Assembly: GCA_001777665.1 (NCBI GenBank)
Contig: MFEQ01000004.1
Span: 64,679 to 128,678 of the forward strand
Direction of reading: 5' to 3'
DNA: 64,000 bases
Source of the DNA: Candidatus Doudnabacteria bacterium RIFCSPHIGHO2_02_FULL_42_25
Lineage (GTDB): Bacteria; Patescibacteriota; Doudnabacteria; UBA920; O2-02-FULL-48-8
This document shows positions 2,794-63,245 of the stretch, one piece after another. Made by a program: the position numbers and the translations under genes. Position 1 is the stretch's first letter. The number at the start of each line of letters is the position of its first letter. Below the pieces are notes generated by a model. The model did not search any database. It was given only the letters and a program-made list of their open reading frames with translations, and was not told the origin of the DNA.

Positions 2794-2860
2794 ACATTAA
2801 GCATTATATCACAACCTGCTGCAATTTGGTCAATGCCAACAATTATGGTAAAATAATCAA

Positions 2861-4298
2861 TATGAATCGCACGCTTATTAAAGATACAATCAACAAAACC
2901 GAGCAGGAAGTTTTAATTAAAGGCTGGGTCAACATCAGAAGAGATCATGGCAAATTGATTTTTTTGGATATCCGGGACCGATCTGGTTTGATTCAAGCCG
3001 TGATCAATCCTAAGGTTTCTGCTGAAGCGCATGCGGTTGCCTCTGAAATCCGCAACGAATATGTAGTCGAGCTGATCGGAAAAATCAATCCACGCGGCGA
3101 AAAACAAATAAATCTAGACCTCGAAACTGGAAAGATCGAAATCGAAGTTACAGGGCTAAAGATAATCAACGGTGCCAAGCCACTCCCCTTTGATATTACT
3201 TCAGACACGAGAACGGTTTCCGAAGAAATACGTCTAAAATACAGGTATTTGGATTTGAGAAATGAGCGAATGAAAAAAAATCTCAAGCTAAGACATAATG
3301 TCATCCAATTCATCAGAAATTATTTGATGGGACTTGATTTCACGGAAATCCAAACACCAATCCTTACTAAATCAACACCTGAAGGAGCAAGAGATTACCT
3401 AGTACCATCGAGGATTTATCCTGGTAATTTTTTTGCATTGCCTCAATCTCCACAACAATACAAACAGTTGTTAATGGTTGGTGGAATAGAACGATACTTT
3501 CAGATAGCTCCGTGTTTTCGTGATGAAGACGCCAGAGCCGATCGAAGTCCGGGAGAATTTTATCAACTCGATCTTGAAATGTCTTTTGTCGAACAGGAAG
3601 ATATTTTAGAGTTGACTGAAAAATTGTTTACCGATTTGGTAAAAACTCTTACTCCAGAAAAACATATAACTTTTTCTCCTTGGCCAAGAATTACCCACAA
3701 AGAAGCAAAAGCGAAATTCGGAAATGACAAACCAGATATGCGTAAAGATAAAAATGATCCGAATGAATTGGCTTTTTGTTGGGTTTTAGATTTTCCTCTT
3801 TTCACTGAACAAACCGAAGAAGATTTCTTTCACGGAGCAGGAGATAAATGGGGGCCTTCGCATCACATGTTTACTGCTCCCAAATCGGAAGATATTCCAT
3901 TACTAGATACAGATCCAGGAAAAGCTAGAGGGTTACAACACGATTTGGCTTTGAATGGTGTGGAAATTGGCGGAGGTAGCATCCGTATTCATGATCCAAA
4001 AATTCAGGAAAAGATTTTTGATTTGATTGGATTTACTAAAAAGCAGAAACAACGATTCAATCACATGCTAGAAGCTTTTGAATATGGCGTTCCCCCTCAT
4101 GGTGGCATAGCTCCAGGAATAGATCGATTAGTTAGAATTTTAGCAGGGGAAGAAAAAATTAGTGAGGTCATCGCTTTTCCTCTCTCTGGATCAGTTCGCG
4201 ACCCTATGATGGGTTCCCCTTCCGACGTGTCAGACAAACAACTCAAAGAATTACACATCAAAGTGGATTTACCAAAGGAGAAAAAAATAGATATTTAA
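2861..4298 (+). CDS. aspS: aspartyl-tRNA synthetase, short archaeal/eukaryal-type (likely non-discriminating)
   Basis: OB-fold N-terminal domain, class II motifs (QSPQQYKQLLMVGGIERYFQIAPCFRDED, GGGSIRIHD), about 479 aa without GAD insertion; start moved to ATG 2861 (track ORF starts at 2751 inside the convergent neighbour). Confidence 0.85.
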
Positions 4299-4300
4299 TT

Positions 4301-4424
4301 CCCCCTCTTAGAATAAGAGGGGGTTAGGGGGGAGTTAGATCTCAAGCGTTAAACAGCAGCTTAATCCTTAAAGGATATAACCCCTCCTAGCCTCCCCTTA
4401 ATATAAGGGGAGGAACAACAGCAT
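4301..4424. mobile_element. MITE-like palindromic element (family 1: CCCCTCTTAGAATAAGAGGGG ... CTCCCCTTAATATAAGGGGAG); miniature of the DUF559 element at 33796-34251
   Basis: Both hairpin ends match the inverted ends flanking the DUF559 ORF; same 120 bp unit present in reverse orientation at 55135-55252. Confidence 0.7.
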
Positions 4425-4442
4425 ACACTCACCACCCTCAAT

Positions 4443-4511
4443 CCCATCTCGAACAGAGTGAGAGATCCCTCTTAAGAGCGATTTCTCGACTCGTTTCACT
4501 CGCTCGAAATG
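4443..4511. repeat. GC-rich hairpin repeat (family 2/3: CCCATCTCGAAC / GAGAGATCCCTC..GAGCGATTTCTC..CGAAATGG)
   Basis: Shares blocks with 56186-56240 and 62170-62193 and (reverse-complemented) 62604-62616. Confidence 0.6.
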
Positions 4512-4716
4512 GTTTACAAATTATATGCAATATCTTAAATCGGTCATAAATATTCTTTGGATCATAACTCTGATTATTGTAATAATTAATGATATCCAAA
4601 CACCAGGCACTGCACCTATACACTATTGGTATTTTTATGCTGCTTCAGTTATGATAATACTTAGGTTTATTGACGATAAATTTTATAAATCAAATAGTAA
4701 AAAATAACCGCTTTCC

Positions 4717-5190
4717 ATGGTTAATAAAATGATATCAAAACCTTTAGAAAAACTACTTAAAGCAAATAAAATCAAATACGAAATTGCGGAACACCGAAAA
4801 GTGTTCACGGCTATTGATGCTGCTGCAACGCAAGATTTAAAAACTGCTGAAGTCGCCAAAGCTGTACTTCTCAAGGGCAAAAACAATCTTTATTTGGCAG
4901 TTTTGCCTGCCGGTAACAACTGCGACTTTAAGGCGTTGAGTAAGCTTACCGCGGATAAAGTTTCCATGGCCAAGGAAAAAGATATTTCCAAAAATATCAA
5001 TGCCAAAATTGGTTTAATTCCCCCATTTGGTTCACTTTTCAAACTTCCCGTTTATCTGGATAAAAAATTACTGAAAAATAAAAAAATAAATTTACCAGCT
5101 GGATCATATACTGAATCTGTGGTTTTGAGTGTGAAAGATTATCAAAAACTGGAAAATCCGATTCTGGGAAACTTTAGTATCAAAAAATAA
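4717..5190 (+). CDS. YbaK/ProX-family aminoacyl-tRNA deacylase
   Basis: 157 aa, YbaK-like trans-editing domain pattern (GKNNLYLAVLPAGN...LIPPFG). Confidence 0.55.
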   Translation: MVNKMISKPLEKLLKANKIKYEIAEHRKVFTAIDAAATQDLKTAEVAKAVLLKGKNNLYLAVLPAGNNCDFKALSKLTADKVSMAKEKDISKNINAKIGLIPPFGSLFKLPVYLDKKLLKNKKINLPAGSYTESVVLSVKDYQKLENPILGNFSIKK

Positions 5191-5912
5191 TGGTCCAAAT
5201 CAAAACCGATCAATTTGAAGGGCCGCTCGATTTGCTTCTGACACTGATCGAAGAGCAAAAGCTCGATATATCCACTGTAGCATTAGCAAAAGTCACAGAA
5301 CAATTTTTGGATTATGTAAAAAATCTTCAGGTAAAAAATCCAATTAACTTAGCCGACTTTTTAGTCATCGCAGCCAAACTTTTAGTGATCAAATCCAAAT
5401 CGCTTTTACCAACTCTGGAATTGGGAGATGAAGAGGAAGAAGCGGCTTTTGATTTAACTGAAGCTTTGCTGCAATACAAAAAATACAAAGAGGTTGCGAG
5501 GCATTTCAGACGCATTGAACTTCGTCACACTCAATCCTGGACTAGAGATGTTGATTTCTCCGATCGAATCACTTTTGTCCCTGACCCGACCATCACTCCG
5601 CAAATCCTCTCCCAGAGCTTGCAAACACTGGCTATGGAACTGAAAGAGATTATCAAATTCCCTCGCCAAATAATGAAAGAGGTGGTGTCCATCTCTGAAA
5701 AAATCGCCCACATCCAGCAACTAATTTCGTCTCAAATTGAAACTTCGCTCGCTTCCCTCCTTAAAGAAAGTAAAAGCAAAACCGAAGTCATTGTAACTTT
5801 TCTAGCCCTGCTCGAACTGACCAAACAACGGATAATCCAGCTCGAACAAACTGAACATTTCGCCGACATCATTATTAAAAAACATCAGCTCCATGGACCC
5901 AGTCAAGCTTAA
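5190..5912 (+). CDS. scpA: segregation and condensation protein A
   Basis: N-terminal QFEGPLDLLLTLIEEQKLDI kleisin motif, followed directly by scpB. Confidence 0.8.
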   Translation: MVQIKTDQFEGPLDLLLTLIEEQKLDISTVALAKVTEQFLDYVKNLQVKNPINLADFLVIAAKLLVIKSKSLLPTLELGDEEEEAAFDLTEALLQYKKYKEVARHFRRIELRHTQSWTRDVDFSDRITFVPDPTITPQILSQSLQTLAMELKEIIKFPRQIMKEVVSISEKIAHIQQLISSQIETSLASLLKESKSKTEVIVTFLALLELTKQRIIQLEQTEHFADIIIKKHQLHGPSQA

Positions 5913-14808: not shown

Positions 14809-14818
14809 GGAATCCTTT

Positions 14819-14838
14819 CCTGCCTGCCGGCAGGCAGG
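14819..14838. repeat. perfect 20-bp palindrome CCTGCCTGCCGGCAGGCAGG (copy 1)
   Basis: Identical palindrome at 29607-29626 and 32015-32034; variant at 35660-35679. Confidence 0.9.
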
Positions 14839-14905
14839 CGTTAATGATGTAAAAGGATTCTATCATTTCAGGCAATTTAGAGAATTGGTATTTAGTCCAA
14901 TGTGA

Positions 14906-22975: not shown

Positions 22976-22995
22976 TCTTGTGATCGCGAGTTTCC

Positions 22996-23070
22996 TACGA
23001 AATACGAATTGGTACGAAACTACGAACTGGGCTTAATTCTTTCGTATTTTCGTAGATTTTCGTAGTTCGG
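22996..23070. promoter_or_regulatory. TACGAA/TTCGTA iteron palindrome (copy 1) in mraZ 5' region
   Basis: 4 direct TACGAA repeats then 3-4 inverted TTCGTA repeats; same architecture at 31445-31524, 35119-35190, 61170-61264, 63134-63245. Confidence 0.7.
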
Positions 23071-23104
23071 AGAGAAAACTCCATTAATAGCTACAGGAAC
23101 CGAG

Positions 23105-29593: not shown

Positions 29594-29606
29594 ATTTTTT
29601 GTTCTC

Positions 29607-29626
29607 CCTGCCTGCCGGCAGGCAGG
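29607..29626. repeat. perfect 20-bp palindrome CCTGCCTGCCGGCAGGCAGG (copy 2), intercistronic
   Basis: Abuts stop codon of upstream gene, 13 nt before next ATG. Confidence 0.9.
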
Positions 29627-30169
29627 TTAGTACGCCTCGACCTTGGCGAAATTATTCAAAAAATTAATATTTGGAGTTTCAAATTTATAAGGCATCTCCA
29701 ACTCCAATTCATAAGTTGGTTCGGTATCTATAGAACCAATCTCTATTATTGCTCCCAAAACCTTTCCTTGTGTATCGTATGAAATCTGTTGTTGCCCCTC
29801 ATAACCCGATCTCACCTGGTCAGTTAAATGATTAATCGCGAGTGAGTAAGCTTCTATTGTTGGTTCGAAATCCTCGAATGGAATTGTTGCAACTTCAGTG
29901 AAGGCCAGATAGAATTGTTCATAAAAATCATTTTGCGCATCCCAAACGAAGGTAACCGTATCGACAACTCCCTGGGCTTGCTGATTCATATCAAGAATCG
30001 TAACTGCCTGCGCTACATCAGACTGCATTTGAGGAGTGAGGCCGGTGAAAAAAACAATTCCAACCACTACCACACCGACAAATCCCCAGGCAACTAATGA
30101 AGTCTCAAACCAATTTAAATTTTGATAATCTGTTTTCATAATATGCTTTTTGTTTTTGAAGATAATCAA
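29627..30169 (-). CDS. membrane-anchored protein, paralog family member 3
   Basis: TM, VVDTVTFVWDAQNDFYEQF motif. Confidence 0.45.
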   Translation of the reverse strand: MIIFKNKKHIMKTDYQNLNWFETSLVAWGFVGVVVVGIVFFTGLTPQMQSDVAQAVTILDMNQQAQGVVDTVTFVWDAQNDFYEQFYLAFTEVATIPFEDFEPTIEAYSLAINHLTDQVRSGYEGQQQISYDTQGKVLGAIIEIGSIDTEPTYELELEMPYKFETPNINFLNNFAKVEAY

Positions 30170-31936: not shown

Positions 31937-32014
31937 CTTCGCACCCCTGTGGATAACAGCTTAACATAAAAACCCCAGCTTTCGCCAGAGTCCCTTTTTA
32001 CTTATTACTTTTTA

Positions 32015-32034
32015 CCTGCCTGCCGGCAGGCAGG
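32015..32034. repeat. perfect 20-bp palindrome CCTGCCTGCCGGCAGGCAGG (copy 3)
   Basis: 7 nt after mltG stop; flanked by TTACTTATTAC motifs. Confidence 0.9.
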
Positions 32035-32041
32035 CTTATTA

Positions 32042-33677: not shown

Positions 33678-33795
33678 GTACCTAATATTCTTTTTTATTT
33701 TTGTTTCTTTAGTAAGACTCTCACCTTACATACATAGTATAGCAAATTTTCCGGATTTTGTAAATAGGTATGAGTAATTTCGCCCGCAGTTTTTC

Positions 33796-34251
33796 CCCTC
33801 CTAGAATAGGAGGGGCTAGGGGTGGTAGAACCTAAGGCAACTCACGAGAAATTTTTTCAATTACACCTTCAATACTTTCCCGAACCTCATCATTCGTAAA
33901 ACGAAGAAGTCGAATTTGATTAGATTCTAAAAAAACTTCTCTTCTCTTGTCATATTCGTTTCCTTTTGGATCTAGAAAATGTGAATCACCATCTACTTCA
34001 ATTCCTAACCTTAATTCATTACAATAAAAATCCAAAATATAATTACCAATTCCATATTGTCGTCTAAATTTATAACCTTTAAGGTTCTTACCTCTTAGAT
34101 AATACCAAAGAATCTGCTCTGCTTGAGGCATATTGTTCCTTAGTTGCTGTCTTCTGCTTTTATATTCTTTTTTGTTGTATAAATAATCCATACTTTATTC
34201 TACCTCACATTCTACCCCACCTAACCTCCCCTATTCTAGGGGAGGAACAAC
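33796..34251. mobile_element. small palindrome-ended element carrying a DUF559 nuclease gene (ends CCCCTCCTAGAATAGGAGGGG / CCTCCCCTATTCTAGGGGAGG)
   Basis: Inverted hairpin ends flank the ORF; MITE-like ORF-less derivatives at 4301-4424 and 55135-55252. Confidence 0.65.
33832..34191 (-). CDS. DUF559 (Vsr-like PD-(D/E)XK) endonuclease-domain protein
   Basis: LW..LR...GYKFRRQYGIGNYILDFYCNELRLGIEVDGDSH hallmark of DUF559. Confidence 0.8.
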   Translation of the reverse strand: MDYLYNKKEYKSRRQQLRNNMPQAEQILWYYLRGKNLKGYKFRRQYGIGNYILDFYCNELRLGIEVDGDSHFLDPKGNEYDKRREVFLESNQIRLLRFTNDEVRESIEGVIEKISRELP

Positions 34252-34317
34252 TGCAAGCTTTCGCAAAGGCGATTTCCGGGATGGTTAAAAAACGTTAATT
34301 AATTTTTCTTCAAAAAA

Positions 34318-35061: not shown

Positions 35062-35118
35062 TTTACCAATTCACCCCCTCTCATCCCCTCCCACCCCCAT
35101 TCTCGACCTTTAAGATAT

Positions 35119-35190
35119 CTACGAACTACGAATTTTTACGAATATACGAACTGGGGTTAACCCTTTTCGTAAATTCGTGTTTGTTCGTAA
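35119..35190. promoter_or_regulatory. TACGAA/TTCGTA iteron palindrome (copy 3) with GGGTTAACCC core
   Basis: 58 nt upstream of 35061 start. Confidence 0.7.
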
Positions 35191-35631: not shown

Positions 35632-35659
35632 GAACGTACCTTTCTTAATAAATTATTAA

Positions 35660-35679
35660 CCTGCCTACCGTCAGGCAGG
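35660..35679. repeat. 20-bp palindrome variant CCTGCCTACCGTCAGGCAGG (copy 4)
   Basis: In hup 5' region, next to a GC-rich island. Confidence 0.8.
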
Positions 35680-35769
35680 CAATCTGAAAACCAGTATAGC
35701 AAATCCTTAACAAATACGCTAGTTGCGGTCAAGGAATAAAAAAAGACCGCGGGTTTTAGTGACCGACGG

Positions 35770-52944: not shown

Positions 52945-53110
52945 GTTTTTGAAAGCGATGCTTGTCCGCCGTAGCCTTGGCGGAGGCGGAAAACGGCTAC
53001 CAACCGTGGAGCTTTCTCGAGAACTTGCCTCGTTATGCAAGAAATGAAGATAAAGTTTTGGGTGGAAACGTCCTCCTGGACCCCAAGCATCAGTGCTTGG
53101 ATTTTTTATT
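52945..53110 (+). promoter_or_regulatory. candidate T-box (Thr) leader upstream of thrS
   Basis: TATAAT at 52931-52936, T-box-like GGGTGGAAACG at 53060-53070, terminator CCAAGCA-TCAGT-GCTTGG + ATTTTTTATT, ACC in CTACCAACC upstream. Confidence 0.35.
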
Positions 53111-53123
53111 AACCTATATAACT

Positions 53124-54356
53124 ATGAGCGAACAAGAACACGATCACAAAATTTTAGGACCGAAACTCGACCTGTTTACCTTTTCAGATGCAGTAGGCAA
53201 AGGGTTGCCGCTGTTTACAGCCAAAGGTGCCACAGTTCGACGGGAATTGGAACGCTTTATAGTCGATGAAGAAATCAAACGCGGCTACCAACACGTTATA
53301 ACTCCCGACATCGCAAAGCTGGATCTCTACCGTAAATCCGGACATTATCCGCATTACAAAGATTCCATGTACGCCCCGATCAAAGTCGAAGATGAAGAGT
53401 TTATGCTACGCCCTATGACCTGTCCTCACCACTTTGAACTTTATCTTCGCAAACCGGTAAGCTACCGAGAGCTTCCTATGAGGATCGCGGAGGTGGCAAA
53501 ACTTTATCGCTTTGAGCAATCTGGTGAGCTTATGGGTTTGCAGCGCGTTCGTAGTTTTTGTTTGTCTGATGCACATATTATTTGCGCGAGCGAAGAACAA
53601 GCTACTGATGAAGCTTCTCAAGCTCTAGATTTGATTGAATACGTAACGGGAGTGCTTGGTTTAACTCATGGGAAAGACTATTGGTACAGACTTTCTCTGG
53701 GTGATCGAAGTAACAAAGAAAAATATTATAAAAATGACGCGGCTTGGGAAAAGGGTGAGGAGTTGCTTCGACAAATGCTTCAAAAACGAGGTCAAAAATT
53801 TGATGAAGCTAAAGACGAGGCGGCTTTCTACGGTCCGAAAATCGATGTCCAGATGAGAAACGCAAATGGTAAAGAAGATACCGCTTTTACAGTCCAGTAC
53901 GACTTCTGCATGCCTGATCGATTTGATCTAACTTACGTAGGTCCAGACGGCGAATCGAAACGAGCATTTGTAGTTCACCGCTCCTCCATTGGCGCGATTG
54001 AACGAATCATGGCATTTTTGATTGAACGGTATGCCGGCGCTTTTCCGGTTTGGCTGTCCCCTATACAAGCCAAAATCCTGCCGATCTCGGATAAGCTAAA
54101 TAAATATGCTCAAGAGTTAACTCTAGAGTTAAAAAAACATGATATCCGGGTAGAACTTGATGATCGATCAGAATCAGTGGGCAAAAAAATCCGTGACGCG
54201 GAAATGGAAAAAGTTCCTTATATGCTAATCATCGGTGAAAAAGAAGCTAAAGCAAAAACTGTTTCTATCCGTGGCCGCAATCAAAGGGATCTGGGAACTA
54301 TGAAACTCGAGAACTTTATCAAAAAGATTTCAGACGAGATCGCAAACCGAGCATAA
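53124..54356 (+). CDS. thrS: threonyl-tRNA synthetase (catalytic + anticodon-binding core only)
   Basis: Class II motifs (CPHHFELYL, HRSSIGAIERI), about 410 aa without N-terminal TGS/editing domains. Confidence 0.85.
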   Translation: MSEQEHDHKILGPKLDLFTFSDAVGKGLPLFTAKGATVRRELERFIVDEEIKRGYQHVITPDIAKLDLYRKSGHYPHYKDSMYAPIKVEDEEFMLRPMTCPHHFELYLRKPVSYRELPMRIAEVAKLYRFEQSGELMGLQRVRSFCLSDAHIICASEEQATDEASQALDLIEYVTGVLGLTHGKDYWYRLSLGDRSNKEKYYKNDAAWEKGEELLRQMLQKRGQKFDEAKDEAAFYGPKIDVQMRNANGKEDTAFTVQYDFCMPDRFDLTYVGPDGESKRAFVVHRSSIGAIERIMAFLIERYAGAFPVWLSPIQAKILPISDKLNKYAQELTLELKKHDIRVELDDRSESVGKKIRDAEMEKVPYMLIIGEKEAKAKTVSIRGRNQRDLGTMKLENFIKKISDEIANRA

Positions 54357-54456
54357 ATCCAGCACCAGTTTTGACTGGTGTAGGTATGTGGAAAATTTTT
54401 AATAATTAAAAAGACGAAGTATTATCTCTATCCTAACAAAAAAACTGGTGCTGGAT
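54357..54456. repeat. inverted 16-bp pair ATCCAGCACCAGTTTT ... AAAACTGGTGCTGGAT enclosing about 70 bp
   Basis: Related to hairpin 21576-21610. Confidence 0.7.
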
Positions 54457-54480
54457 AAAAAAAGCGCCTTCCCTAAGGGG

Positions 54481-54936
54481 TCAGCGCGGCTTGGTCGCGA
54501 TCAACTTCGCAGGATCATGCATGCGAGTGAACGTTCCAACGAACAGTTCAGAAAGCGGTTTCCCTCTATCTACTCGTTGCATTTCTTCTTCTAGTCTTTC
54601 GTAGCCCTCCTTCATGATTGCCTCGTGAGCTGCACTGTCCTCACCATTGTGACTCTGGGCTTTCTCGATCTCTCGTTTGATCTCAAAAACAAGCTCTTGT
54701 CTCCGCACATCCATTGTCTGAATAACACGACCACCGCCCAGCTTAACTTTCGCTAACGCTAGGTAGACGGCACGAATATGCTGACCCATTGGATCAGTAG
54801 ATCTCGGGTCAAAGCGCGGTACCTGGATCAGGCCCGATAACCCGTCACTCATTTCCTGCGACGCCAAGTACCAGCCGTTGCCCTCCGCTTGTTCATACGT
54901 TAACTTGATGATCTTACGGTCACTGCTGTTAACCAA
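54481..54936 (-). CDS. hypothetical protein in a GC-rich island
   Basis: TTG start with GAGGTGA SD; GC about 52%; no family. Confidence 0.4.
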   Translation of the reverse strand: MVNSSDRKIIKLTYEQAEGNGWYLASQEMSDGLSGLIQVPRFDPRSTDPMGQHIRAVYLALAKVKLGGGRVIQTMDVRRQELVFEIKREIEKAQSHNGEDSAAHEAIMKEGYERLEEEMQRVDRGKPLSELFVGTFTRMHDPAKLIATKPR

Positions 54937-55134: not shown

Positions 55135-55252
55135 CAGCAGTTGTTCCTCCCCTTAATATAAGGGGAGCTAGGAGGGGTTATCCTTAAGCGTTAAGCTGCT
55201 GTTTAACTCTTGGAATCAACTCCCCCTAACCCCCTCTTATTCTAAGAGGGGG
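55135..55252. mobile_element. MITE-like palindromic element (family 1), reverse-orientation copy of 4301-4424
   Basis: Near-identical block order in reverse complement. Confidence 0.7.
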
Positions 55253-55268
55253 AATTTACAGCAAACTT

Positions 55269-56201
55269 ATGTCTAACAAACTAATAGTAATTTTAGGCCC
55301 TACCACCTCGGGGAAATCATCACTCGCTATCAATCTCGCCCAAAAATTCAATGGCGAGATTATTTCTGCTGACTCCAGGCAAGTCTACAAAGGCATGGAT
55401 ATCGGCACTGGTAAAGTTACTAAAGCAGAACAAAAACTAATCAAACATTATCTTCTCGACGTCTCCTCCCCAAAAAAGCAATTCACTGTTTCGGATTTTA
55501 AGCGTCTTCTAATTTCAGCGATCGCTCAAATTAGAGGAAAAGACAAATTGCCTTTCTTAGTTGGTGGCTCGCCTTTTTATATTTATGCGGCCATAGATAA
55601 TCTACAAATTCCAGAAGTCACACCCAATCAAAAACTACGTAATCAACTACGTAGAAAAACTACTACCCAACTTTTTGCCATGCTTAAAAAACTTGACCCA
55701 GTTCGAGCAAAAAATATTGATAAAAATAATCCTCGGAGATTGATAAGAGCTATTGAAATAGTAAAAGCGACGGGAAAGCCGGTACCACCCCCACCTAACC
55801 TCCCCCTGGCAGGGGGAGGTGCCTTGATCATTGGGATCAAGAAGTCTCGTAAACAGCTCTACAAGCTTATCGATCAACGACTTGAGCAAAGACTCAATCA
55901 AGGAATGGTTAATGAAGTCAAAAAACTTCTGAAACAAAAAATCAGCCACAAACGGCTGCAAGAAATGGGATTAGAGTATCGCTTTATTTCTCTTTATCTG
56001 CAAGATCATCTCACCTATGAGCAAATGGTTGAACAATTGAAAAGCGCTATTCACAAATTCAGCAAACGCCAAATGACTTGGTTCCAAACCGACAAACGTA
56101 TCAAATGGATCTCTTCAGAAAAACAAGCAGAACGACTAATTAAGGACTATATAAAACCATCTCGACCCCGGACTACGATCCGGGGGAGAGATCCCTCCTG
56201 A
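55269..56201 (+). CDS. miaA: tRNA dimethylallyltransferase
   Basis: P-loop GPTTSGKSSLAINLA, DSRQVYKGMDIGT; carries two in-frame palindromic insertions (55789-55819 and 56166-56201). Confidence 0.85.
   Translation: MSNKLIVILGPTTSGKSSLAINLAQKFNGEIISADSRQVYKGMDIGTGKVTKAEQKLIKHYLLDVSSPKKQFTVSDFKRLLISAIAQIRGKDKLPFLVGGSPFYIYAAIDNLQIPEVTPNQKLRNQLRRKTTTQLFAMLKKLDPVRAKNIDKNNPRRLIRAIEIVKATGKPVPPPPNLPLAGGGALIIGIKKSRKQLYKLIDQRLEQRLNQGMVNEVKKLLKQKISHKRLQEMGLEYRFISLYLQDHLTYEQMVEQLKSAIHKFSKRQMTWFQTDKRIKWISSEKQAERLIKDYIKPSRPRTTIRGRDPS
55789..55819. repeat. family-1 hairpin CCCCACCTAACCTCCCCC-TGGCA-GGGGGAGG inserted in-frame in miaA
   Basis: Shares 17-mer CCCCACCTAACCTCCCC with element end 34215-34231; translated as PPPNLPLAGGGA. 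Confidence 0.7.
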
Positions 56202-56366
56202 GAGCGATTTCTCACTAATCGTTCGAAATGGGTAATCCCATCCCGGACGCTACAAGCGAAGCGCGGGCGATCCGGGATCCACTACACTAATTAATATCAA
56301 ATGATTCTTATTTGAAATGGACCCCGGATCGGCTTGATCGCCGGAGAGACGATCAAGTCCGGGGTG
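56166..56366. repeat. composite GC-rich hairpin repeat (family 2/3) overlapping the miaA 3' end
   Basis: CCCCGGA-CTACGA-TCCGGGG encodes the last miaA codons; GAGAGATCCCTC block; ATCCCGGA..TCCGGGAT; ACCCCGGATC..GATCAAGTCCGGGGT. Confidence 0.7.
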
Positions 56367-62512: not shown

Positions 62513-62603
62513 TAATCGCCTGAACTTCAATTTACAGAGCCTGACTCGTTCGGCTCTTTCTTTTTTTAAAACATTAGCGAAAAATCACTTCTTAAGGCTC
62601 TGA

Positions 62604-62678
62604 AGAGGGATCTCTCCCCCGGATCGGAGTCCGGGGTCGAGATGGTTACCTATTTGGTCCGATCGTACAAATAGGTAA
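62604..62678. repeat. family-2/3 repeat (GAGGGATCTCTCCCCCGGATCGGAGTCCGGGG) plus hairpin TTACCTATTTG/CAAATAGGTAA
   Basis: Right flank of ppnP-like gene, abuts recX stop. Confidence 0.6.
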
Positions 62679-63133: not shown

Positions 63134-63245
63134 CTACGAAAGTACGAAAGGATTACCTGCCCGACATGCCAGTCATGGCAGGCGGGCGAAAATACGAAAG
63201 GTTTTCACACATGTTCGTATTTCGAACAAATTCGTAGTTCGTAGA
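63134..63245. promoter_or_regulatory. TACGAA/TTCGTA iteron palindrome (copy 5) in the recX/clpC divergent region
   Basis: Inverted copy of 61170-61264 including the GC-rich core. Confidence 0.7.

Follow-up and report, generated by a model that had tools for sequence, protein, structure and literature searches.

The 64,000-nucleotide window analysed here, the whole of the DNA stretch under study, carries a single DUF559 gene, on the minus strand at 33832-34191. Its 119-aa product is a YcjD-family protein of the Vsr-like PD-(D/E)XK class, with matches in both Pfam and PDB. It covers positions 3-108 of the 109-position Pfam DUF559 model (PF04480; E = 1.9e-32) and scores 111.8 bits against a cut-off of 20.6, which places it in the family, and it also matches the structural-genomics protein PDB 3HRL (E = 7e-18). 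The family profile itself matches 3HRL at E = 9e-26 and, weakly, the group I intron homing endonuclease I-Bth0305I (3R3P; E = 0.0019). Residues D54, E65, D67 and H71 occupy invariant columns across 31 homologues of the window protein and probably form the active site of the predicted nuclease. The family comprises about 22,000 clusters at 50% identity, and we know of no biochemical activity for any of its members. Published classifications place DUF559 in one class with Vsr, and I-Bth0305I is grouped there as well (PMC1189080, PMC3424549). DUF559 and MTES_1575 are the only Pfam matches of the element that carries the gene; neither an HUH/Y1 (RAYT) transposase nor a transposase of any other known catalytic class is found in it by Pfam, and by this measure it is not an autonomous insertion sequence (IS). 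No second ORF fits inside the 469-bp element, no intron or intein context surrounds the gene, and the exact protein was found in one genomic context only, so that there is no strain-level second locus. A phage vector for the element was considered, and is unsupported because the viral contigs and phage records searched hold no close relative of the gene.

The element as a whole spans about 469 bp on the minus strand (33786-34254). The original prediction had placed the gene between inverted end motifs, which the Pfam match and the sequence confirm; the inverted repeat that it described is present, but is longer than noted, being a 52-nt imperfect terminal repeat whose arms (33786-33837 and 34203-34254) are 79% complementary and contain an outer GCAGTTKTT. 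The outer terminal 9-mer at 33786-33794, GCAGTTTTT, lies at the 3′ side in gene orientation and matches GCAGTTGTT / GCTGTTGTT at other ends. It is followed by end module D (33795-33828, plus strand), made up of the hairpin CCCCTCCTA-GAA-TAGGAGGGG (33795-33815), the linker CTA (33816-33818), a mirror G-box GGGGTGG (33819-33825) and TAG; the complete left motif thus reads CCCCTCCTAGAATAGGAGGGG-CTA-GGGGTGG-TAG and stops 3 nt from the stop codon of the ORF. End module U (34212-34245, minus strand) consists of CTA, the C-box CCCCACC (34215-34221), the linker TAA (34222-34224) and the hairpin CCTCCCCTA-TTC-TAGGGGAGG (34225-34245), giving the right motif CTA-CCCCACC-TAA-CCTCCCCTATTCTAGGGGAGG. On the sense strand of the gene module U reads hairpin-TTA-GGTGGGG-TAG and is separated from the ATG by 20 nt. 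The outer 9-mer on this side, AACAACTGC (34246-34254), is the reverse complement of GCAGTTGTT and conforms to AACAACWGC in all three copies.

Read in gene orientation, the 5′ part of the element is therefore outer GCAGTTGTT, hairpin CCTCCCCTA-GAA-TAGGGGAGG, linker TTA, G-box GGTGGGG, TAG, 20 nt and the ATG, while the 3′ part runs from the TAG of the ORF through GGTT, CTA, C-box CCACCCC, linker TAG and hairpin CCCCTCCTA-TTC-TAGGAGGGG to outer AAAAACTGC. The two ends differ in type (G4AG2 with G2TG4 versus G2AG4 with G4TG2), and the stems in the window measure 7-10 nt, with the sequences CCTCCCC(TA) and CCCCTCC(TA). Both end hairpins are predicted to be stable by folding. Apart from tRNAs, Rfam gave no match in the window at gathering thresholds.

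The 64 kb contain seven perfect C-arm/G-arm hairpins, all of them within four sites, namely the element, two ORF-less paired-end mini elements and a solo end inside miaA. The 21-mer with up to three mismatches is expected 0.00 times (100 shuffles), and hairpin-plus-mirror modules were found 0 times in 20 shuffles of the window, which excludes chance. Mini element 1 (4297-4422, plus strand; 126 bp) begins at the lysS stop codon and comprises a hairpin (4301-4323), linker and G-box (4324-4334), a spacer (4335-4380), C-box and linker (4381-4390), a second hairpin (4391-4413) and the outer sequence AACAACAGC (4414-4422); it folds as three hairpins (z = -6.3 versus shuffles). Mini element 2 (55137-55262, minus strand; 126 bp; z = -4.1) is inverted relative to the first and has a small conserved ORF on one side and the start codon of miaA on the other. 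The two are 87% identical, the spacer of about 45 nt included, and since the spacer is common to both, the mini element itself has been copied. Short, ORF-less, present in more than one copy and bounded by terminal inverted repeats that match those of a gene-bearing element, they have the features of MITEs, and the original proposal of ORF-less pairs in opposite orientations with MITE-like behaviour holds. As to its further suggestion, that they derive from the nuclease element, their ends match those of that element, while the spacer, aligned to the ORF, gave spurious short blocks and no recognisable derivation. Mini and full elements do resemble each other over about 13 nt just inward of the C-box. 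The solo end module (55788-55819, minus strand), absent from the earlier prediction, lies in frame in the hypervariable linker of MiaA, where it encodes PPPPNLPLAGGG; it consists of the C-box CCCCCACC, TAA and the hairpin CCTCCCCC-TGGCA-GGGGGAGG. Beyond the element ends, the two ORF-less pairs and this one solo end, the 64 kb contain no such motifs.

Comparison with related genomes shows both kinds of unit to be absent from orthologous sites. More than ten metagenomic Doudnabacteria relatives keep the gene order HU, MS channel, CAP, YceG, with MS channels 71-80% identical; their MS-to-CAP spacer, 125-460 bp long, includes a terminator as well as the promoter of CAP (TGCTATAAT), and neither DUF559 nor a C/G hairpin was found in it in any of these relatives. 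The corresponding spacer in the window measures about 700 bp because the element is present. At the position of mini element 2, a relative with a 76% identical MiaA (L171) has the stop codon of the small conserved ORF overlapping the miaA ATG, an empty site that gives the insertion polymorphism expected of a MITE, and two others (L169 and L170) carry an unrelated insert of about 140 bp with terminal inverted repeats at the same site. Near-identical units also occur in unrelated contexts in Nostoc species, where segments of 530-590 bp are 95-97% identical, similarity ends with the modules, and the surrounding ±5 kb have nothing else in common. Nostoc also has a unit of roughly 95 bp with outward-facing boxes, which resembles a junction at which two ends are joined. 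A target-site duplication was sought as a flush direct repeat and none was found, AACTT and GCGAAA lying near the ends and not at them. These comparisons support the original view that the gene and its inverted ends form a discrete inserted unit.

Gene and modules are associated across this DUF559 subfamily in general and not just at a single locus. The tally covered 81 DUF559 loci, namely the source contig and 80 loci from 80 GTDB species whose proteins are 48-63% identical. These species represent Patescibacteria, Saccharibacteria, many cyanobacteria, Nitrospirota, Nitrospinota, Gammaproteobacteria (Vibrio among them), Bacteroidota, Ignavibacteria and further groups. Within 130 bp of the ORF, perfect C/G hairpins were present on both sides at 57/81 loci, on one side at 20/81 and on neither at 4/81, against both sides in 1/388 control ORFs from the same loci. 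Nearly all loci share one layout, with hairpin and G-box upstream and C-box and hairpin downstream, and the hairpin-to-hairpin span is 401-564 bp (median 475). All 52 convergent end pairs spaced 300-800 bp apart enclose DUF559 (52/52), and a further 19 convergent pairs in the fetched loci are spaced 30-160 bp. Convergent pairs lacking DUF559, considered as a sign of alternative cargo, enclose ordinary genes (peptidase-like, CHAT-like and others) and were taken for adjacent ends belonging to different elements. DUF559 loci contain 3.7 modules per 10 kb and CPR loci not selected for DUF559 contain 0.14-0.29, a difference of about 15-25 times. Whether the other modules of a locus resemble those beside its own DUF559 gene was also compared, a comparison confounded by genome relatedness.

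The modules also overlap the coding sequence in a recurrent manner. At 51 of 68 loci the ORF stops in or at the C-box, which accounts for the PPLxPPxxGGE C-terminal tails of the homologues; tails such as LPPLAPPILGGE are the downstream module read through, and in the window the same peptide is encoded in frame beyond the ORF stop codon. AGGAGG is a frequent part of the G-box, immediately before the start codon. Among more distant DUF559 genes (40-47% identity), those on Deinococcus and Picosynechococcus plasmids have the same modules and that of Neisseria gonorrhoeae has decayed ones. A gene that lies between inverted repeat units, which in turn are dispersed as inverted doublets, has the layout of a REPtron. 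The alternative foreseen in the original prediction, that the hairpins are just widespread REP-like sequences, is accurate in that the motif is widespread and also solitary; the link to the gene is not refuted by this.

In each end module a C-arm/G-arm hairpin is followed, after a linker of 3 nt, by a G-box in mirror order to the G-arm. This box has no complement nearby and does not repeat the arm directly, but spells the G-arm in reverse. Among 210 informative ends, a strict 7/7 mirror match was found in 116, versus 11 for the direct-repeat alternative, and the mirror score averages 6.70, compared with 5.89 ± 0.04 when pairings are permuted. In unique ends with a single non-G marker, scored by the mirrored distance from the 3-nt linker, the marker stood at the mirrored position in 55 of 65 (9.3 expected), with five different marker positions represented. 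The box base facing the A of the stem was A (32), T (22) or C (1). On a strand that folds back antiparallel to the purine arm, A or T facing A and G facing G are what a purine-motif triple helix requires, and such mirror covariation cannot arise from Watson-Crick structures in RNA or DNA. Within one element the two ends mostly belong to different types, and each is consistent in itself. Treating the ends as true inverted repeats that pair across the ORF as long-range RNA was also tried; the G-box and C-box then show two mismatches in 10, and this poor pairing, together with heptads mirrored between the ends, led to that model being dropped for mirror symmetry within each end.

Intrastrand triplex-forming sequences of class II are defined by a pyrimidine stem, a loop of 1-6 nt, a complementary purine stem, a second loop of 1-6 nt and a second purine stem that is antiparallel and mirrors the first, with stems of 6-15 nt and at most one mismatch (ITxF; PMC4666352). 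All six paired-end modules of the window were called as G/C-rich class II motifs under this definition and the miaA copy was checked by eye, so that by sequence definition the modules are predicted triplex formers. The ends are thus not the plain palindromic hairpins originally described, but a known repeat, named BoxC, then PIT element, then TM or TMECO (Holder et al., 2015, NAR; PMC4666352), and in reading them as triplexes the analysis rediscovers it. The strict TMECO pattern, CCCTCNCCC-N3-6-GGGNGAGGG-N3-GGGNGAGGG, has 23 copies in E. coli K-12 (PMC4666352) and does not match the modules of the window. In that study 262 proteobacterial genomes had 3610 copies between them, Microcystis, Anabaena and Nostoc had G/C-rich motifs by the hundred, and K-12 contained five inverted TM pairs, always one type A with one type B (PMC4666352). 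An E. coli TMECO oligonucleotide forms a stable single-strand triplex by CD and NMR; no triplex was seen in double-stranded DNA in vitro, and DMS footprinting detected none in vivo (PMC4666352). TM loci show raised rearrangement and are hotspots of small rearrangements, and no mobility function was found near the motif (PMC4666352). The window modules themselves lie at the ends of a gene-bearing unit that is absent from relatives. Earlier descriptions of the repeat are reportedly those of Bachellier in the 1990s and of Hoyne and Maher in 2000.

In E. coli the DUF559 gene is ycjD, 43.5% identical in its product to the window protein and located between sapF and fabI; in the supplement of Holder et al. 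it is mentioned only as the neighbour of TMECO 9 (PMC4666352). Strain KE47 has a perfect TMECO that overlaps, on the opposite strand, the 3′ end of ycjD (the product of which terminates in ...LNRLSPSPQPSP), so that the downstream module is placed as in the Doudnabacteria element, and a second perfect TMECO follows about 170 bp beyond the first. K-12 has kept the second copy, and the first is degraded. The gene occupies this locus in 5286 of 5426 E. coli genomes, a fixation that looks like vertical inheritance or decay and not activity. No paper linking the gene to the repeat was found in the searchable literature, from which subscription journals mostly fall out of scope; the repeat (BoxC/PIT/TM) and the family (DUF559) were already known, and it is their connection that appears to be new here.

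The anatomy of the element, the mirror covariation, the cross-phylum linkage, the insertion polymorphism and the dispersal of ORF-less pairs and solo ends are best accommodated by a compact mobile unit of about 470 bp with MITE-like derivatives, in which DUF559 is the candidate structure-specific nuclease, a reading to which we assign a probability of roughly 55%. When a module becomes single-stranded, its G-box would fold back antiparallel on the purine arm of the hairpin as G*G:C, A*A:T or T*A:T triples. DUF559, as the putative nicking or cutting enzyme of the element, would recognise the folded end on DNA that is transiently single-stranded during replication, repair or entry as incoming single strands, and would cut at or near the outer boundary, leaving host replication or repair to finish the movement. 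ORF-less pairs may be mobilised in trans, as MITEs or REPINs are, and solo modules may be relics or one-ended products. A hydrolytic PD-(D/E)XK nuclease is incapable of strand transfer alone, and we know of no transposon that relies on such a nuclease alone. The points that count against this explanation are strand joining, the absent target duplication, the fixation of ycjD, the unrelated mini spacer, and the negative results for the triplex in duplex DNA and in vivo.

The repeats may instead be spread by errors of host replication or repair, or by an unlinked enzyme, in a REPIN-RAYT-like relationship without transposition by DUF559, which would then be a host nuclease for triplex-stalled forks or for repeat control, linked to the modules through regulation by them or through their accumulation around the gene. 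The fixed locus of ycjD agrees with this, and so do the excess of modules, of which a genome has dozens to hundreds, over its one or few DUF559 genes, the status of TM sites as rearrangement hotspots (PMC4666352), and the frequent AGGAGG within the G-box. Passive accumulation would, however, not be expected to produce a strict two-sided inverted layout across phyla with the stop codon inside a module, nor does it explain why gene and ends move in Nostoc as one sharply bounded unit that is missing from the syntenic site of related Doudnabacteria, and we consider this account unlikely.

We regard as improbable the variant in which DUF559 is a free-standing homing endonuclease that targets an ORF-less pair or empty allele, the gene being copied in by recombinational repair with the modules of about 45 bp as homology and the modules spreading by other means. 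The profile match to I-Bth0305I and the shared classification with Vsr and that enzyme are in keeping with it, as are the ORF-less pairs with the same two end types in the same genome and the 13 or so nucleotides shared inside the C-box side. It does not account for how mini and solo modules spread, the mini spacer has outside those nucleotides no relation to what lies beside the ORF, homology arms of about 45 bp are short, and the gene has no intron or intein context. The original interpretation, which favoured homing-endonuclease-like selfish cargo, is in sum partly supported, the discrete inserted unit, the MITE-like pairs and the flanking across the subfamily being borne out; that DUF559 moves the ends, or acts in a homing-endonuclease-like way, is inferred from the linkage and from the weak I-Bth0305I match. 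Expression signals at a housekeeping repair gene (terminators, insulators or mRNA-stabilising stem-loops, the other copies being REP-like terminators) would fit stable, intergenic hairpins at gene ends, but this reading is largely excluded and very improbable, as no T-run follows the hairpins and a scan for intrinsic terminators did not call them, one copy lies in frame inside miaA, the whole unit is missing from relatives, Watson-Crick structure does not explain the G-box mirror covariation, purine-motif triplexes do not form in RNA, and PIT elements had no promoter or terminator activity according to the work of Maher as cited there (PMC4666352).

A broader proposal, which we put forward tentatively, is that DUF559/YcjD proteins are dedicated enzymes of unrecognised pan-bacterial selfish elements whose ends are read as intrastrand triplexes, with the BoxC/PIT/TM repeats as their non-autonomous progeny. 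If so, no autonomous mobile element known in bacteria would be smaller than the unit of about 470 bp, its ends would be marked by a triple helix and not by sequence or a hairpin, and this would be the first natural case of a mobile-element nuclease with a DNA triplex for its substrate structure. The same would account for the odd PPLxPPxxGGE-type tails and inserts of many predicted proteins. Two orphans are joined in this way, the BoxC/PIT/TM repeats, present in hundreds of genomes, associated with genome instability and unexplained since the 1990s, and DUF559, and if the nuclease acts on the modules both become accessible to simple biochemistry and E. coli genetics.

Among known systems, BoxC/PIT/TM repeats share with the window modules the order of C-stem, loop of 3-6 nt, G-stem, second loop of 3 nt (often TTA) and mirror second G-stem, and are likewise dispersed, mostly intergenic, strain-variable, and single or in inverted pairs of two types. 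They differ in that the stems of the window (CCTCCCC and CCCCTCC, 7-10 nt) fall outside the strict CCCTCNCCC pattern, and in that the window modules are the ends of a DUF559-bearing unit in a Patescibacterium, whereas the published work reports no associated gene. Vsr, I-Bth0305I (Vsr-like EDxHD; 3R3P) and 3HRL belong to the same fold family by sequence profile and published classification. Vsr nicks one strand beside a distorted site and I-Bth0305I belongs to a selfish element; the DUF559 element, unlike the former, has no Dcm partner or T:G context and, unlike the latter, does not lie inside an intron or intein.

MITEs and their parent IS elements resemble the present units in their terminal inverted repeats, in ORF-less copies of less than 150 bp that carry the ends of a gene-bearing copy, and in filled and empty sites, and the IS200/IS605 group also in its distinct left and right ends, very small size and hairpin ends read on single-stranded DNA. 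The DUF559 element differs from these in having no DDE, HUH, serine or tyrosine transposase and no identified target-site duplication. At about 470 bp it is, to our knowledge, below the size of any known autonomous IS. The REP/REPIN-RAYT systems (REPtrons) likewise combine a small nuclease-type gene between inverted copies of a structured repeat with dispersal of that repeat as inverted doublets and singlets, also inside genes, and the repeat is presumably read on single-stranded DNA. RAYTs are HUH/Y1 transposases that act through a covalent intermediate, whereas DUF559 is a Vsr-like PD-(D/E)XK protein and would act hydrolytically; their repeat is a simple GTAG-tagged hairpin and not a triplex module; and they are typically single-copy and vertically inherited, in contrast to a DUF559 unit that relatives lack and that occurs in unrelated contexts in Nostoc. 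With these differences, the REPIN-RAYT system is, by analogy of arrangement and presumed function, the closest functional counterpart of the element.

In the Doudnabacteria loci L169 and L170, the region upstream of miaA carries an insert of ~140 bp (locus positions 2860–3000) with the terminal inverted repeats CTGTCTTTGCGAG...CTCGCAAAGACA. It lies at the site occupied in the window by mini element 2, an ORF-less pair of ends to which it is unrelated; small elements seem to have a hotspot here. The neighbouring threonyl-tRNA synthetase ORF of the window (region 52962–54936) encodes 464 aa and has no tRNA_SAD domain; the enzymes of relatives are 582–594 aa long and possess this domain. An additional ORF of 151 aa (54481–54936, reverse strand), which had no Pfam match and is missing from relatives L169–L171, separates thrS from the small ORF that precedes miaA.

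Within miaA itself, the linker that extends from ...TGKPVP to ...LI(I/L)GIKK (55770–55840 in the window, codons ~170–190) is hypervariable among Doudnabacteria. Peptides characteristic of translated palindromic repeats are found here, differing by genome: PPPNLPLAGGG in the window, and PRKRESS and HPEFISGSQDQIPKQVRND elsewhere. This loop seems to offer small repeats a permissive landing site. The MiaA of the window also bears a 14-aa C-terminal extension, the coding DNA of which (56155–56201) belongs to a second dispersed repeat family with the layout AACCATCTCGACCCCGGACTMCGATCCGGGGGAGAGATCCCTCYTNAGAGC...GATTTCTC...CGAAATGG. Members of this family are located at 56155–56250 and, on the reverse strand, at 62575–62650, with a partial copy at 4440–4520. 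Two of the copies show 94% complementarity over 51 nt, and one directly adjoins mini element 1, the other ORF-less pair of ends in the window. The sequence beside the full DUF559 element (34247–34300) bears a weak resemblance to the same family.

Two further repeats are intergenic. The perfect palindrome CCTGCCTGCCGGCAGGCAGG recurs in the window at 14816–14839, 29604–29627, 32012–32035 and 35657–35680, and is also present in the MS-CAP spacer of relative L087. Three intergenic regions (22995–23073, 35118–35166 and 63199–63245) contain clusters of the short repeat TACGAA / TTCGTA, which runs in either direction there.

In the Nostoc loci (L021–L069), the DUF559 ORF is flanked by two direct copies of a ~95-bp unit (locus positions ~4840–4965 and ~5367–5490), which is itself bordered by a longer inverted repeat, CTACGGTGTACACRCAAGT. 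Each unit is a pair of modules whose boxes point outward, in the order C-box, hairpin A, spacer, hairpin B, G-box, as would be expected of joined element ends. Some predicted proteins of 260–377 aa (P0241, P0254 and P0277) contain two or three DUF559 stretches, and may represent tandem elements read through their modules. Locus L067 contains two DUF559 genes ~1 kb apart.

Across E. coli, the region of ycjD, the DUF559 gene of this species, had some match in 5286 of 5426 genomes and was at least 80% covered in only 3377 of the 5426. The 291 bp downstream of ycjD had a median of 16 matching places per genome in this collection. The E. coli form of the triplex module, TMECO, has been counted at 1 to 29 per strain (Holder et al., PMC4666352).
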